Assembly (NCBI GenBank): GCA_035538515.1
Contig: DATLKF010000010.1
Location: 194,679-258,678, forward strand
Length of the DNA stretch: 64,000 nucleotides
Origin: Gemmatimonadales bacterium
GTDB taxonomy: Bacteria; Gemmatimonadota; Gemmatimonadetes; Gemmatimonadales; GWC2-71-9
Direction: 5' to 3'
Shown here: one piece after another, positions 38,661 through 45,140 of the stretch
Position numbering within the stretch: the first letter of the stretch is position 1
How the letters are laid out: each line of letters begins with the position of its first letter
Notes under the pieces: generated by a model
Told to the model about the DNA's origin: nothing
Database searches by the model: none
The model's input: only the letters and a program-made list of their open reading frames with translations
Translations under genes and position numbers: made by a program

Positions 38661-40634
38661 ATGATCACGCAGCGACTGACACGAGCCGTGCTCGCATCAT
38701 TGGCATTGGTAACGCCTTCGTTGTCGGCGCAGAATGCTGCGGCCCCGGCCGCCCCGTCACCGGATCGCCGGGTGGGACTGCGCGCCGGTTGGTGGGATGC
38801 CGGCCAAGCCGCATGGAACCTGCGCCTGGTCTCGACGAGCCCGCCGACGAAGGACTTCATCCCGGCCACGGCCGGCGATTTCGACTACATGAACTCCGAT
38901 TTGGCGTTCGACGGGCACTACGTCATCCAGGGCAACTTCCGCGGCTTTCAGGTATGGGACGTCGCGGATCCCGCCCATCCCCATCTCGTGCACGCCGAGA
39001 CATGCCCGGAGCAGCAGAATGACGTGTCGGTATACCGCAACCTGCTGTTCCTCTCGGGTGAGTCGCCCAACGGGCGCTTGGACTGCGGCACGCAGGGCGT
39101 GAGCGACCGGGTAAGTCCCGTACGGATGCGCGGGGTTCGGGTCCTCGACATCGGCGATCTCACTCACCCTCGCATCCTGGCGAACGTGCAGACCTGCCGT
39201 GGATCCCACACGCACACACTGGTGACCGACCCGAAGGATACGAGCGTCGTCTACATCTATGTGTCCGGCCAGGCCCCGGTACGTCCGGCCGAGGAGCTGG
39301 CGGGGTGCTCATCCGCGCTGCCGGAGCAGGACACGGCGTCGGCGCGTTTCCGGATCGACATCATCCGCGTACCGTTGGCCCATCCGGAGCAGGCGAGCAT
39401 CGTGAGCCGTCCGCGGATTTTCGAGGCACTGGTCGCGCCGCCCACACACGGTCCCGCGCCCGCCGACTCCGCGGCCGCAGCGCGCTTCGCCGACTCCGCG
39501 CAGGCGAGAGGGGCGTTCGTCGCGAGGTTTCAAGGAGAGCCCGTCGTGCTACCGCCACAATTCACCAACGGCATGCTCGACAGCATCGTGCGGAGTCGTG
39601 GCGGCGCCGGCGCGCCCACGGCAGCCGATAGCGTCGCACTGCGCGGCGCCCTCCAGGGCATCATCGACGCGATGTTCCTGGCGCCCATGGGGCCGGGCGG
39701 TGTGCGGCACGGCCCCGATCAGTGCCATGACATCACCGTGTATCCGGCGCTCGGTCTCGCCGCTGGTGCCTGCGCCGGCTACGGCCTGTTGCTCGACATC
39801 CGGGATCCCATTCACCCCGTCCGTCTCGCGGCCGCCTCGGATTCGAACTTCTCCTACTGGCACTCGGCGACATTCAACAACGATGGGACCAAGGTACTGT
39901 TCACCGACGAGTGGGGCGGTGGTGTGGCGCCGCGCTGCCGGGCGACGGACAAGCCGGAATGGGGCGCCGATGCGATCTTCACGGTGGCGAACCATGGACT
40001 CGCCTTCCGTGGCTATTACAAGCTGCCGGCCATCCAGACGGCGACTGAAAACTGCGTGGCGCACAACGGCAACCTGATTCCAGTCCCCGGCCGCGACATC
40101 ATGGTGCAAGGCTGGTACCAGGGCGGCGTCTCGGTGTTCGACTGGACCGATCCCGCGCACCCGACCGAGGTCGCGTATTTCGATCGTGGGCCGATGGACT
40201 CGACCAAGCTCGAGCTCGCGGGCAGCTGGTCGGCCTACTGGTACAACGGCTACATCTACAGCTCCGAGATCGGCCGCGGGCTCGACGTTCTCGAGCTCCA
40301 GCCCAACGCCCTGCTCACGCAGAACGAGATCGACGCCGCGAAGCTCGTGAAGGCCGCATATCAGAACGTCCAGGATCAGCAGCGGGTGACCTGGCCCGCG
40401 AGCTTCGTGGTGGCGCGTGCCTACCTCGATCAGCTCGACCGGTCGCGCGGCCTGGCGCCAGGTCGCATCAGCGCTGTGCGAACGGCGCTCGCGAGCGCGG
40501 AACGGGCGACCGGCCGCCGGCGGCGGAGTGCGCTGACCGCGCTCACCATGGAGATCGAGCGGGATGCCGCCAGCGCGGCGGATGCGGAGAAGGTGCGCGC
40601 GCTAGCGGGGGCGGTGCGGGAGCTGGCGCGGTAG
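38661..40634 (+). CDS. Secreted LVIVD-repeat-like beta-propeller protein
   Basis: Signal peptide. Recurrent xxVxDxxDPxxP strands (FQVWDVADPAHP, VRVLDIGDLTHP, LLLDIRDPIHP, VSVFDWTDPAHP). Helical C-terminal tail. Confidence 0.55.
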   Translation: MITQRLTRAVLASLALVTPSLSAQNAAAPAAPSPDRRVGLRAGWWDAGQAAWNLRLVSTSPPTKDFIPATAGDFDYMNSDLAFDGHYVIQGNFRGFQVWDVADPAHPHLVHAETCPEQQNDVSVYRNLLFLSGESPNGRLDCGTQGVSDRVSPVRMRGVRVLDIGDLTHPRILANVQTCRGSHTHTLVTDPKDTSVVYIYVSGQAPVRPAEELAGCSSALPEQDTASARFRIDIIRVPLAHPEQASIVSRPRIFEALVAPPTHGPAPADSAAAARFADSAQARGAFVARFQGEPVVLPPQFTNGMLDSIVRSRGGAGAPTAADSVALRGALQGIIDAMFLAPMGPGGVRHGPDQCHDITVYPALGLAAGACAGYGLLLDIRDPIHPVRLAAASDSNFSYWHSATFNNDGTKVLFTDEWGGGVAPRCRATDKPEWGADAIFTVANHGLAFRGYYKLPAIQTATENCVAHNGNLIPVPGRDIMVQGWYQGGVSVFDWTDPAHPTEVAYFDRGPMDSTKLELAGSWSAYWYNGYIYSSEIGRGLDVLELQPNALLTQNEIDAAKLVKAAYQNVQDQQRVTWPASFVVARAYLDQLDRSRGLAPGRISAVRTALASAERATGRRRRSALTALTMEIERDAASAADAEKVRALAGAVRELAR

Positions 40635-41795
40635 TTGTCTGCTTCGCGTCGTCCGGCGCGTGTTGCGAACCAGCTTCCAGAACTGGCGATCACCGATCAC
40701 CGTCACGACGTGTCCCTTCGCGGCAAGGCGCTGGACCTCGATCAGCTTGGTGCCGCCGCCGGCGCCGGCGATCTGGAGCGCGTTGGGTCGCCCGCGCACG
40801 AGGACGTCAGTGGAGCGCCCGGGTTTCGACTGCACGATGGCGCCGGCTCGGCGCGCCGCGGCGATCGCATCGTTGCGGGGACGGCTGAGGAATCCCGTGA
40901 ACGACAGCCGCTTGCCTGCGAGGCTCTGCACCCGCCCGAATTGCGGCGCCGTGCGGGGATGGCGCAGCGCGGTCATCAGCTCGCCTGCGGCGGCGTAGCG
41001 CCGTCCGCGACCGCCCAGGCAGCGGTAAATGACTTCCTTGAGGTGATCGCTGCACGGCAGTTTGCGGACGTCGCGACTGCGAATCGGGCTCATCGTGTCG
41101 CCGCGCAGTAACATCACGGCGATCAGCCCGACCTGGTAGATGTCGTCGCGCTGCTGCCAGCGCCGCACCCTCCCCCAGGCGATCTCGTTCGGGACGTTGA
41201 ACAAATTGAACGCATCGGCGGTCACGCCGCGGCGGCTGAGCTGATGCGTGGCGATCCCAAAATCGCCCAGCTTCAGCTGCTCGTGCTCGCACACGAACAC
41301 GTTGAACGGCGTCAGATCCCGGTGCAGGGCCTGCCCCCGGTGCAGTGCATCGAGGACGGAGAGCACCGCGGCGATCTCACGCCGCACGAACCGTTCGGAC
41401 TGCGGCCCCTTGCCCTCCAGCCACGAGCCGAGATCGCCGTGCTCGGCGTACTCCATCGTCAGGCAATAGCGCGTGCGTCCGCCGTCGACGACGACGAATC
41501 GGTCGTGAATGCGCAGCGCGCGCTGCTCGCGGCTCAGGAGCTCGGCGAAGTAGGCCTCGCGCAGCCAGGGGGACAGTCGGTCGGTGATCTTGACGCACAC
41601 CTTGGGCGGTAGCGCACCCCGAGGGTGGGCCGTGGCTAGGTAGACCTCCCCGAACCCGCCCTTCCCGATCAGCCGCTGCAGACGATAGGTCCGCTCGCTC
41701 TCGCTGCTGACCACGGCGGACGGTGCGGCCTGCGCCGGCTGCTCGGTCGGCTGCGTGGGAGACAGGCGCGTACGTGTCGCCATGCGATGTCGCAA
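40602..41795 (-). CDS. Ser/Thr protein kinase fused to a C-terminal BRCT domain
   Basis: Kinase motifs GKGGFGEVY, VCVKI, HRDLTPFN and LGDFGIA. The C-terminus LAGKRLSFTGFLSRPRNDAIAAARRAGAIVQSKPGRSTDVLVRG...GTKLIEVQRL..VTVIGDRQFWKLV follows the LigA-type BRCT pattern. The 3' end overlaps the convergent gene by 33 nt. Confidence 0.8.
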   Translation of the reverse strand: MRHRMATRTRLSPTQPTEQPAQAAPSAVVSSESERTYRLQRLIGKGGFGEVYLATAHPRGALPPKVCVKITDRLSPWLREAYFAELLSREQRALRIHDRFVVVDGGRTRYCLTMEYAEHGDLGSWLEGKGPQSERFVRREIAAVLSVLDALHRGQALHRDLTPFNVFVCEHEQLKLGDFGIATHQLSRRGVTADAFNLFNVPNEIAWGRVRRWQQRDDIYQVGLIAVMLLRGDTMSPIRSRDVRKLPCSDHLKEVIYRCLGGRGRRYAAAGELMTALRHPRTAPQFGRVQSLAGKRLSFTGFLSRPRNDAIAAARRAGAIVQSKPGRSTDVLVRGRPNALQIAGAGGGTKLIEVQRLAAKGHVVTVIGDRQFWKLVRNTRRTTRSRQLPRQLPHRPR

Positions 41796-41836: not shown

Positions 41837-42610
41837 TCAAGACTTGTAGGTGAAATCCACAGTCTTCGTCTCGGTGCCCGTTACCGTCACCGTGGCCGTT
41901 CGACTCCCGTACTTCTCGTGCCACGCCTCGATCGTGTAGGTGCCGGGCGGCAGGTCCTTGATGGTGAACCTGCCGTCACTGCCCGTCGTTGCGAAGAAGG
42001 GATATGGCAGGACGCCGGCGAAGGCGTGCATCCATCCGTGCACGTTGCACTCAAACGGCAGCATGTCCTCGCGCGCGGTGAAGGTGCGCTCCGTGGTCAT
42101 GCCGGCGGCGGGCTGGCTGATGTTGAACGGGCGGTTCTCCTTCCCCATCGCCTTGATGTTGTGGAGCAGCGGATCGCTGTTCACGATCCTGAGGGGCTGG
42201 CCGACCATGATCCCGAACACCCGCGGATGGTACAGGCATCCCTTTTGGTCGATGACGACCGGCGTCGTGGGCGGAGCGTACGTCGCACCTGCCGGGACGC
42301 CGGTCTTCACGTACACGAACACGTCGGACAGCGTCCCGTTCGGGTTCACGACGGCGATTGGCTCATGCGGCGGGGCGGTGTAGTCACCCTTGCACTTCGG
42401 CTCCTCACTCATGTCGATCGGCGGGTTGGCGGGCGCCCGGCCGACGAACTTCACCTCCCCGGTGACGGTTGCGCCCCCCGCGGGTGCACTGGGTGCTGCC
42501 GCGGGCTGCGCAGGGGCCGACTCCCGTGGGGAGGACTTGTCGCCCTGGCCACAGGCTAGGACGAACACCAGCAGTCCCACTCCTGGTGCGACCGGTCCAA
42601 GGTTGCGCAT
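41837..42610 (-). CDS. Cupredoxin-like (amicyanin-type ligand pattern) lipoprotein with C-terminal CarboxypepD_reg-like domain
   Basis: Lipobox FVLACG. LLHNI ... about 38 aa ... CNVHGWM gives H...C-x2-H-x2-M. The C-terminal TTGSDGRFTIKDLPPGTYTIEAWHEKYG indicates a CarboxypepD_reg-like fold. Confidence 0.6.
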   Translation of the reverse strand: MRNLGPVAPGVGLLVFVLACGQGDKSSPRESAPAQPAAAPSAPAGGATVTGEVKFVGRAPANPPIDMSEEPKCKGDYTAPPHEPIAVVNPNGTLSDVFVYVKTGVPAGATYAPPTTPVVIDQKGCLYHPRVFGIMVGQPLRIVNSDPLLHNIKAMGKENRPFNISQPAAGMTTERTFTAREDMLPFECNVHGWMHAFAGVLPYPFFATTGSDGRFTIKDLPPGTYTIEAWHEKYGSRTATVTVTGTETKTVDFTYKS

Positions 42611-42611
42611 G

Positions 42612-43127
42612 TCAGCGGCTCGCCACCACTGGCTGAATCCGCAGCTGACCGCGCAGCTCGCCGCCGGGGTGGGCGCGCGTGTGCACGGTCACATAGGCGT
42701 CGTCTTTACGGAGTGCTTGCTCGAGCCTCCGCATGGTCGTCCCGTGTAGGTCGTTCGCTCGCAAGGTGCCGCTCGCGAGCAGGCCAGAAACGGGCCCCGC
42801 CTTGAGGCCCTCGAACAGGTCTGCCACGACTGGCTGGTCCTCGCGGGCACGCCCGATGTGGATGTACGCGCCGGTGACGTCCTTCATCGACTCGACGTCT
42901 ACCCGGTAACGCAGCCGCGAGCCATCGAGCGTCAACTCGGTCGTTCCAGTCGCCGCGGTTTCGACCGCCGGGATTTCGTAGCCCCCGCTCAGCACGGAGA
43001 CGAACGTCTCCCGCGATGTGGCATGCCGTGGTTCGGCCTTCTGAGTCGCGGGTTTTTTGGTGGCCTGCGCGCCGGCCGTACCGGCGACGAACAGACTGGC
43101 TAGTGCAGCAAGAAGGGCGTTTCGCAT
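42612..43127 (-). CDS. CHRD domain-containing secreted protein
   Basis: Signal peptide. LSGGYEIPAV..ATGTTEL, AYIHIGRA and YVTVHTRAHPGGELRGQL are typical CHRD motifs. Confidence 0.7.
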   Translation of the reverse strand: MRNALLAALASLFVAGTAGAQATKKPATQKAEPRHATSRETFVSVLSGGYEIPAVETAATGTTELTLDGSRLRYRVDVESMKDVTGAYIHIGRAREDQPVVADLFEGLKAGPVSGLLASGTLRANDLHGTTMRRLEQALRKDDAYVTVHTRAHPGGELRGQLRIQPVVASR

Positions 43128-43725: not shown

Positions 43726-44379
43726 TCAGATTTCAAAGGCGACGAGGCCGTGTCCAATCGCCCACCGGACCAGCCCGGCGATGTCGTGGATCTCGAGCCG
43801 ATTCATCAAGTCGGCCCGATGTCGTTCCACCGTCTTCACGCTCAGGCCGAGCCGTTGCGCAATCTGTTTCGACGTGCATCCCTCGGCGATGAGCTGCAAG
43901 ATCTCCCGTTGGCGTGGCGTCAGGCGCTCCACATCGCCCGGCCGCTCGGCGTCGCGAGTCAGGTATTCCGGGATGACCCGCTTGGCGACACGCGGGCCGA
44001 GGTAGAGGTCCCCTCGCGCGACGGCGCGGATCGCCAGCTCCAGCTCCGGGCCACTAGCCGTCTTGAGCAGGTAGCCCGTGGCTCCCGCCTTGAGCGCGCG
44101 ATTGACATAGGCCTCGTCGGGATGCATGGACAGCACGAGCACTTTCACGCCGGGGACGTCGCGCAGGATCTGCGCGGTGGCGTCCAATCCGTTCAGGTCC
44201 GGCATCGTGATGTCCATCAGCACGACGTCGGGCCGTTGCTGGCTCGCGAGCTGCCGCGCCTCTCGGCCGTTGGACGCCTCCGCGACGACCGTGATCCCCG
44301 AGAAGCCGTTGATCAGCGCCCGCAGCCCGGATCGGAACAGGGCGTGGTCGTCAGCGAGCAGGACGCGAATCGTACTCAT
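43726..44379 (-). CDS. NarL/FixJ (LuxR-type HTH) response regulator
   Basis: REC domain (IRVLLADDH...DVVLMDITMPDLNG) and HTH (LTPRQREILQLIAEGCTSKQIAQRLGLSVKTVERHR). The ATG overlaps the HK stop (ATGA). Confidence 0.92.
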   Translation of the reverse strand: MSTIRVLLADDHALFRSGLRALINGFSGITVVAEASNGREARQLASQQRPDVVLMDITMPDLNGLDATAQILRDVPGVKVLVLSMHPDEAYVNRALKAGATGYLLKTASGPELELAIRAVARGDLYLGPRVAKRVIPEYLTRDAERPGDVERLTPRQREILQLIAEGCTSKQIAQRLGLSVKTVERHRADLMNRLEIHDIAGLVRWAIGHGLVAFEI

Positions 44380-45140
44380 CGGCTGGTGACCGGATCGCCC
44401 ACACGCAGCGGGAAGCGAGCGCACACGAGCGTTCCCGCGGCCGGCCGCGAGTCGATCTCGAGCTCTCCACCGACGTACTGCGCGCGCTCGCTCATCCCCA
44501 CGAGTCCGAGCCGGCGCTCGACCGGAGCCGTGGCCTGCAGGGTGGGGGCGTCGAATCCGACGCCGTCATCCCGCACCGCGAGCCGCAGGCAGGCATCATC
44601 CGTGCGGAGGTCGACCTCCAACCGTTTAGCCCTGGCATGACGCACCACGTTGGTGACCGCTTCCTGAACGATGCGGAAGCACGCCACTTCGACCTCCTTA
44701 GAGACTTGACCGTCAACCGAGATCGCAAGACCGAGTGACAACTTCGTGGGTGCCGTCTGGCGCTTGATGTACGCGTCCACCGCCGCCGCCAGGCCCAAGT
44801 CGTCGAGCAACGAGGGCCGAAGGTCGAACGACAGGGTCTGCACCTGCTCCACGGCACGCTTCACGGCCGCGATCGACTCGCTCACCCGTGCCAGCAGTGC
44901 AGGATCCCGAATGTCCCGGTGGAGCGACTCCAGGTTCACCTTCACCGCGCTGAGCGTCTGACCGATCTGGTCGTGCAGCTCCCGCGCGATGAGTGTACGC
45001 TCCATTTCCTGCACCTCGACCAGGCGGCGGGACAGCGCTTGCAGCTGATGCCGGCTATCCTGCCGTGAGCGTCGCTTCATGAAGCCAATATAGACGATGG
45101 CCGCGCTGGGCCGAGCGGCAAGTCGCAAAACACTGTGCAA
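44376..45140 (-). CDS. Short cytoplasmic histidine kinase (HisKA_3 + HATPase_c only)
   Basis: H-box IARELHDQIGQTL and ATPase N-box/G-box (VTNVVRHA, DDGVGF, GLVGMSERA). No TM segment or recognisable sensor domain. Alternative start at 45080. Confidence 0.85.
   Translation of the reverse strand: MHSVLRLAARPSAAIVYIGFMKRRSRQDSRHQLQALSRRLVEVQEMERTLIARELHDQIGQTLSAVKVNLESLHRDIRDPALLARVSESIAAVKRAVEQVQTLSFDLRPSLLDDLGLAAAVDAYIKRQTAPTKLSLGLAISVDGQVSKEVEVACFRIVQEAVTNVVRHARAKRLEVDLRTDDACLRLAVRDDGVGFDAPTLQATAPVERRLGLVGMSERAQYVGGELEIDSRPAAGTLVCARFPLRVGDPVTSR

Follow-up and report, generated by a model that had tools for sequence, protein, structure and literature searches.

A Hanks-type protein kinase of Gemmatimonadales with a C-terminal BRCT domain and a possible tether to DNA

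Described systems closest to the kinase-BRCT protein

In most bacteria BRCT domains are found only in DNA ligase and in a Pol III epsilon-like protein (PMC10386641), and for bacteria the literature names a single conserved phospho-binding domain that interacts with kinases, FHA (PMC4238996). Here we analyse a gene in which a Hanks-type Ser/Thr kinase domain is followed by a single BRCT domain. It lies in a 64,000-nucleotide stretch of DNA (the window; contig DATLKF010000010.1 of assembly GCA_035538515.1, positions 194,679 to 258,678) from a soil bacterium of the order Gemmatimonadales. Such proteins are common in Gemmatimonadales metagenomes, where they are annotated as 'protein kinase' only, and we found no functional description of them; nor did the literature searched, outside which most subscription journals lie, hold any description of a bacterial kinase-BRCT fusion or of an HRDLTP catalytic loop. 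The architecture is apparently undescribed, although its two parts, the kinase fold and the DNA-binding class of BRCT, are each known. With moderate confidence we favour the explanation that the protein is a soluble PknB-like Hanks kinase whose BRCT domain and C-terminal tail would tether it to DNA and would not serve to read phosphoproteins. We prefer DNA tethering because the BRCT domain is single, belongs to the LigA/RFC1 subclass, keeps a TG...R...K pocket and is strongly cationic.

The best profile match of the BRCT domain is that of LigA (2owo, 1l7b, 1dgs), which shares the TG...R...GxK motif, the C-terminal position and membership of the bacterial single-BRCT class, but there the domain sits on a ligase and not on a protein kinase. 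Compared with the LigA BRCT, that of the kinase contains two insertions, one of about 8 amino acids following beta3 and one of about 5 preceding beta4, and is much more basic, its net charge being +13 over 91 amino acids (isoelectric point 12) against 0 for the E. coli LigA domain. The BRCT of RFC1/p140 (2k6g, 2k7f, 2ebu) is also single and has the Thr-Gly and the Arg in common, whereas RFC1 belongs to a eukaryotic clamp loader, and its DNA binding needs an extra N-terminal helix. The RFC1 class of BRCT is known for binding 5'-phosphate ends. As for the kinase domain, PknB-type kinases provide the closest solved fold (1mru) and share the G-loop, the VAIK Lys, the alphaC Glu, HRD, Asn and DFG; the Gemmatimonadales protein differs in having no transmembrane segment or PASTA/extracellular sensor apparent by eye, a Thr for the catalytic-loop Lys, and a BRCT as accessory domain.

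Two further groups of kinases invite comparison. RqkA (DR2518) of Deinococcus radiodurans is a DNA-damage-responsive Ser/Thr kinase (PMC6052341; bioRxiv 10.1101/2020.04.06.028845). It resembles our protein, or what we propose for it, in being soluble, in carrying a C-terminal accessory domain and in the roles in which it is implicated, namely the DNA damage response and the phosphorylation of proteins of division and repair. The accessory domain of RqkA is, however, a WD40 beta-propeller and not a BRCT, and we propose RqkA as a functional analogue, orthology not being claimed. The best PADLOC matches were the kinases of PD-T4-6, MAD6 and Stk2 (E ~1e-26 over the kinase core); this similarity is to the generic core only, and the gene described here comes without defence context or mobile element.

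The BRCT domain and its putative ligand

The first-pass annotation of the window had read the C-terminus of the protein as a LigA-type BRCT domain and had suggested Pfam PF00533 as a check. On the window protein itself PF00533 gave E=0.061 for the whole sequence and E=0.0068 for the C-terminus alone, scoring 14-17 bits where the gathering threshold is 21.3, and so stayed below it, while the NCBIfam model PRK06195 (DnaQ+BRCT) covered residues 289-377 at E=9e-6. Two sets of relatives were used here and below, a close set of 24 and a diverse set of 45 with 28-49% identity. In the latter, PF00533 matched 32 of the 45 proteins at E<=0.01 (best 3.4e-8), so that the Pfam check fails for the lone sequence but succeeds for the family. 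A profile built from 40 C-terminal sequences matched E. coli LigA (2owo) end to end at E=9e-12, the Thermus LigA BRCT (1l7b) at E=1.3e-11 and the RFC1 BRCT structures at E ~4e-11, but reached only 1e-3 to 0.06 with the phosphopeptide-reader BRCTs of Rad4, TopBP1 and MCPH1. This significant match bears out the LigA-type reading, and as judged from these profiles the BRCT assignment is secure at the family level, far beyond chance, though sub-threshold for the window sequence alone. A homologue search with only the C-terminus returned nothing but contig-end fragments of the same kinase-BRCT family; JGI labels these fragments 'BRCT domain type II-containing protein' or 'NAD-dependent DNA ligase' and full-length members only 'protein kinase'.

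Within this domain T300, G301 and R307 fall, in the alignment, on the TG...R that LigA and RFC1 share, and K350 falls on the GSK Lys of LigA, which reproduces the motif of that class: Thr-Gly after beta1, Arg in alpha1 and Lys at the start of alpha2. Conservation over the diverse set was high (T300 in 43, G301 in 41, R307 in 40 and K350 in 43 of the 45). We take these four residues to be the equivalents of RFC1 T415, G416, R423 and K458, which contact the DNA 5' phosphate. The RFC1 BRCT has been solved bound to DNA (2k7f, identical in sequence to 2k6g), and BRCT binding to free phosphates at DNA breaks has been reviewed (PMC10386641). Positive charge is also a trait of the family, the median net charge being +9 and the lowest +3, and the tail that follows the domain, although variable in sequence, is cationic in 24 of 24 close relatives.

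According to the explanation that we favour, the BRCT domain and the Arg-rich tail would bind DNA, with the phosphate at nicks or at recessed 5' ends as the most plausible target, in the manner of the BRCT domains of LigA and RFC1. Binding would place the kinase, and perhaps activate it allosterically, on DNA that is damaged or being replicated; there it would phosphorylate itself plus nearby repair, replication or division proteins and so act as a DNA-associated signalling kinase alongside or instead of SOS. A more specific version, which we put forward only tentatively, makes the protein a DNA-lesion sensor, in which the BRCT domain on nicks or 5'-phosphate ends would switch on the Thr-for-Lys kinase to phosphorylate repair, replication or division proteins.

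The first-pass annotation had also proposed that the fusion could dock either on its own phospho-products or on nucleic-acid or repair proteins. The second possibility fits better; the first is less likely in view of the single BRCT, the LigA/RFC1 profile and the charge of +13. It would make the protein both writer and reader, with the BRCT domain recognising phosphoserine (pSer) or phosphothreonine made by its own kinase, on itself or on substrates, and the outcome would be dimerisation or scaffolding driven by trans-autophosphorylation, or else processive or feed-forward phosphorylation. The T300-G301...K350 triad is indeed the pocket type that binds pSer in eukaryotic BRCTs, and some single BRCTs (TdT, REV1, Lig3) prefer phosphopeptides (PMC10386641); the kinase, moreover, is of the RD type (HRD) that is usually activated through activation-loop phosphorylation. 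A phosphopeptide could fit into this pocket, and we keep such a writer-reader in consideration, but judge it unlikely: a second repeat that would form the +3 specificity pocket is lacking, the profile is far closer to LigA/RFC1 (1e-11) than to reader BRCTs (1e-3 or worse), the net charge exceeds the need of one phosphate, and no conserved Ser/Thr-x-x-Phe site was identified in the family. A tandem-BRCT reader of the BRCA1/MDC1 type, in which two adjacent repeats make up the pSer-x-x-Phe reader with its pSer and +3 pockets, was rejected, there being one BRCT only, then a tail of 19 amino acids, and reader BRCTs matching so poorly.

The gene, the kinase domain and the catalytic loop

The kinase-BRCT gene is a single open reading frame (ORF), 40602..41795 on the minus strand, of 397 amino acids counted from a TTG, the count used for residue numbers here. 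Its start codon is likely the ATG at 41783, giving 393 amino acids, because MATRT opens all close homologues as well as P0001, a database entry of 393 amino acids with 100% identity that is labelled 'protein kinase [Gemmatimonadales bacterium]'. This ATG lies 53 bp past the stop codon of the upstream gene, and no sigma-70-like promoter or intrinsic-terminator match was found around the gene (the window has a G+C content of ~66%). The protein appears to be soluble and cytoplasmic, since inspection by eye revealed no long hydrophobic stretch.

The complete Hanks core noted in the first-pass annotation held up. GKGGFGEV, VCVKI, HRDLTPFN and DFG were all located, and Pfam Pkinase (PF00069) matched residues 37-237 at E=1e-21, with 78 bits against a cut-off of 31.7 bits and thus above threshold; it also matched 45 of the 45 diverse relatives. 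Catalytic residues are kept across that set almost without exception (K69 and D160 in 44, E80, N165 and D178 in all 45). A model made by AlphaFold2 (AF2) with a 98-sequence alignment had a mean predicted local distance difference test score (pLDDT) of 90.3 and a predicted template modelling score (pTM) of 0.85, while with the 24 close homologues only the pLDDT was 50. The former model has the bilobal kinase fold, and Foldseek placed it nearest to M. tuberculosis PknB (1mru, E=1.9e-15, TM(target) 0.74), with Aurora, SIK3, phosphorylase kinase and Chk1 as runners-up. Residues ~292-386 are predicted to run in the order beta-alpha-beta-beta-alpha-beta-alpha, the one expected of a BRCT domain, and the pTM suggests a fixed arrangement of the two predicted domains. 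In the N-terminal leader, sequence varies over the first ~20 residues, and the model is of low confidence there (pLDDT <50 at model residues 1-11); the conserved segment SSESxRTY is modelled as a strand on the N-lobe (model residues 23-25).

What sets this kinase apart is its catalytic loop, in which the canonical Lys of the Ser/Thr-kinase signature is replaced by Thr162. The change, already remarked upon in the first-pass annotation, is real: Thr162 is invariant among the 24 close relatives, and the position holds Thr in 37, Ser in 2 and Lys in 6 of the diverse relatives, that is, Thr or Ser in 39 of 45. As a background we used the 80 loci of a genome scan keyed on a generic HRD pattern, which yielded one true relative (L001) beside 79 ordinary kinases. 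Thr or Ser, rare at this position among ordinary bacterial kinases, occupied it in only 4 of the 98 catalytic loops of these loci, and the BRCT domain was absent from all 79 ordinary kinase loci. The ancestor was probably canonical, with Thr fixed later, because the six relatives with Lys are the most distant members of the set. Thr or Ser at this position recalls the loops of the Bud32/RIO type, HGDL(T/S)xxN, and weak secondary matches to Bud32, Kdo/WaaP, RIO and ABC1 models agree with such a loop. Thr162 is an atypical trait inside the kinase family and no ground for excluding the protein from the fold; to go by the conserved residues, the domain is probably active but atypical, and the substitution probably modulates phosphoryl transfer without abolishing it.

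A pseudokinase or ATPase, serving on DNA mainly as a scaffold or as a switch that depends on nucleotide, could also account for a fixed Thr in the close family and the dominance of Thr or Ser in the wider one, as well as for the secondary matches just mentioned, the poorly conserved APE Glu (12 of 45) and the few relatives with HGD or HGG. We regard it as improbable, however, given that all the other catalytic residues are essentially invariant, that the nearest folds are those of the active kinases PknB, Aurora and Chk1, and that retention of Lys in the six most distant relatives points to an ordinary-kinase ancestor. The HGD/HGG members are P0297, P0363 and P0389, which have HGD in place of HRD, with HGG and loss of the catalytic Asp in P0389, and all retain the BRCT domain; they suggest that the family may occasionally drift to pseudokinases that keep their BRCT.

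Small-molecule kinases that share this fold, such as APH and choline kinase, typically lack the catalytic-loop Lys. One might therefore imagine that the BRCT domain sets a kinase-fold enzyme on a nucleic-acid end, a small molecule or a polymer that is itself phosphorylated, and weak APH and Kdo Pfam matches in relatives, together with the 5'-phosphate-end-binding class of the BRCT, would suit such a non-protein substrate. The HRD...N and DFG motifs and the C-lobe architecture are, however, those of protein kinases, and we know of no precedent for a protein-kinase fold phosphorylating nucleic acids; besides, a BRCT that binds 5' phosphates would recognise the product of a 5' kinase and not its substrate. 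We find this reading hardly credible.

Family, genomic context and significance

A search of 1.84 billion representatives identified, at E<=1e-30, 190 clusters formed at 50% identity; among the best 150, about 50 span the profile end to end and the remainder are fragments. The close group, with 76-100% identity and more than 120 clusters at 90%, belongs to Gemmatimonadales/Gemmatimonadaceae, and relatives outside Gemmatimonadales were seen in Vicinamibacterales (L001, 51% identity) and in a metagenome-assembled genome labelled Nannocystis. Whatever the level of divergence, the kinase and BRCT parts are conserved to the same degree (39% and 38% identity in the diverse set, for instance), and the fusion therefore evolves as one unit. 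No member of the family was found on the PLSDB plasmids, INPHARED phages or IMG/VR contigs searched. One plasmid match, H1 (83% coverage), was rejected as a member, being a kinase-STAND-TPR-LuxR protein without BRCT. The kinase-BRCT gene is chromosomal, stand-alone, conserved and apparently vertically inherited.

This distribution bears on a further possibility, namely an anti-phage kinase like PD-T4-6 or Stk2, whose BRCT would sense phage DNA ends and whose mass phosphorylation would lead to abortive infection. The PADLOC models PD-T4-6 and mad6 matched at E=7.5e-26 and 1.1e-25, some distant relatives have an N-terminal TY-Chap3 domain, known from conflict systems (PMC9503650), and one divergent relative adjoins YbjN-like and DUF932 genes. 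The PADLOC matches are nevertheless confined to the generic kinase core, and the NCBIfam scores are far from their cut-offs (MAD6 54.7 against 460 bits, PglW 23 against 990). The gene, moreover, lies among metabolic genes with partial synteny in Gemmatimonadales, outside defence islands; 76-100% identity over more than 120 clusters resembles vertical inheritance; and the plasmid, phage and IMG/VR collections searched yielded no member. We consider a defence role very unlikely, and rejected it as contradicted by gene context and distribution.

Some divergent relatives have features of their own. In P0256, P0259, P0266, P0268 and P0273 (500-547 amino acids) an N-terminal TY-Chap3 domain (PF22552, YbjN/type III secretion system-chaperone-like; best E=1.6e-20 in the longer relatives) precedes the kinase-BRCT part, and this domain has been described in ADP-ribose-centred conflict systems (PMC9503650). 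P0258, a divergent protein of 536 amino acids with an N-terminal extension, is flanked by HD_5, YbjN-like (E=2.7e-4) and DUF932 proteins, and from this neighbour and the TY-Chap3 fusions a YbjN/TY-chaperone association therefore appears to exist in both fused and adjacent form. The contig of divergent P0394 (L087) is rich in kinases: a kinase-WD40 protein of 1189 amino acids is encoded near the kinase-BRCT gene, as are a sigma-70-like gene and then two more kinase genes.

In the window (Table 1) the gene for a 657-amino-acid protein converges on the kinase-BRCT gene, and their 3' ends overlap by 33 nt; a protein of ~654 amino acids, also without Pfam match, adjoins GH30 in another Gemmatimonadales contig (L084). 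Further nearby genes of the window encode GH30, a peptidase S58, a creatininase and a ClC channel. Other Gemmatimonadales contigs show a shuffled partial synteny (creatininase, peptidases, GH30, the ~655-amino-acid protein) with different immediate neighbours, and divergent relatives lie among unrelated genes. We surveyed the neighbours of 88 loci, representing 53 lineages at 95% identity, by clustering their ORFs with labelled references, and found no obligate partner gene across them. The commonest immediate neighbour, in 8 of 42 eligible lineages, is a divergently transcribed gene for an AlkZ-like DNA glycosylase, followed by DinB_2 in 4 of the 42; these are the only recurrent immediate neighbours, and both are DNA-damage-associated families. 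The AlkZ-like gene, of the interstrand-crosslink DNA glycosylase family, stands head-to-head with kinase-BRCT, across a gap of 14 bp in L082 and L083, and DinB_2 occupies the same position in its four lineages. The adjacency is suggestive, weakly, of a DNA-damage theme.

Table 1. Positions of the kinase-BRCT gene, its parts and neighbouring or related features (window coordinates unless a contig is named)
Feature	Position	Strand	Remark
Kinase-BRCT coding sequence, ATG to stop	40602..41783	-	393 amino acids; MATRT homologue N-termini
N-terminal leader, ORF residues 5-36	41688..41783	-	Family alignment and AF2
Hanks-type Ser/Thr kinase domain, residues 37-280	40956..41687	-	Pfam Pkinase E=1e-21
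GKGGFGEV	41643-41666	-	Coordinates checked by translation
VCVKI	41586-41600	-	Coordinates checked by translation
Catalytic loop HRDLTPFN	41301..41324	-	Thr162 codon 41310-41312 replaces Lys of HRDLKPxN
DFG	41256-41264	-	Coordinates checked by translation
Inter-domain linker RTAPQFGRVQS, residues 281-291	40923..40955	-	Conserved in close family; pLDDT ~85-90
Single BRCT domain, LigA/RFC1 subclass, residues 292-378	40662..40922	-	Profile matches
Putative phosphate-pocket residues	T300-G301 40893-40898; R307 40875-40877; K350 40746-40748	-	Conservation and alignment
Arg-rich C-terminal tail, residues 379-397	40605..40661	-	Net charge +7
657-amino-acid protein, signal-peptide-like N-terminus	38661-40634	+	No Pfam match at E<=0.001
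CarboxypepD_reg protein	41837-42610	-	Same strand, upstream of kinase
CHRD protein	42612-43127	-	Same strand, upstream
LuxR-type response regulator	43726-44424	-	Same strand, upstream
HisKA_3 histidine kinase	44376-45140	-	Listed ORF overlaps response regulator by 49 nt
AlkZ-like gene	L082 5856-6986; L083 117-1247		Head-to-head with kinase-BRCT
P0258 neighbours	L089 3-1130, 2886-3431, 3466-4296		
Kinase-rich features	L087 1603-5172 and 13557-15149		

Several points weigh against a DNA-tethered signalling kinase. The TG...K pocket would also suit a phosphopeptide ligand, and the exchange of Lys for Thr could leave weak or no protein kinase activity. Neither a conserved operon partner nor a phosphatase or substrate candidate was found at the loci examined. 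The adjacency to AlkZ and DinB_2 covers less than one third of lineages and may reflect shared ancestry; these genes are not beside the gene in the window, where the neighbours encode the CarboxypepD_reg protein and the putatively secreted 657-amino-acid protein.

The fusion joins two modules that are central to eukaryotic DNA-damage signalling. Should the kinase-BRCT protein prove to be merely a soluble kinase with a DNA-binding tail, the result would be a correction of annotation, and such proteins deserve a BRCT label. The invariant Thr in the catalytic loop, set against the Lys of the deepest relatives, amounts to a natural experiment on what this position does. Were the BRCT domain to bring the kinase to lesions, the protein would offer a compact and tractable bacterial model of damage-coupled phospho-signalling, and would be a second example beside RqkA of Deinococcus, in a phylum known from dry soils. 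The lesion-sensor version, if true, would mean that Gemmatimonadota, and some Acidobacteriota and Myxococcota, possess a BRCT-based, eukaryote-like form of damage signalling that is independent of LexA/RecA.

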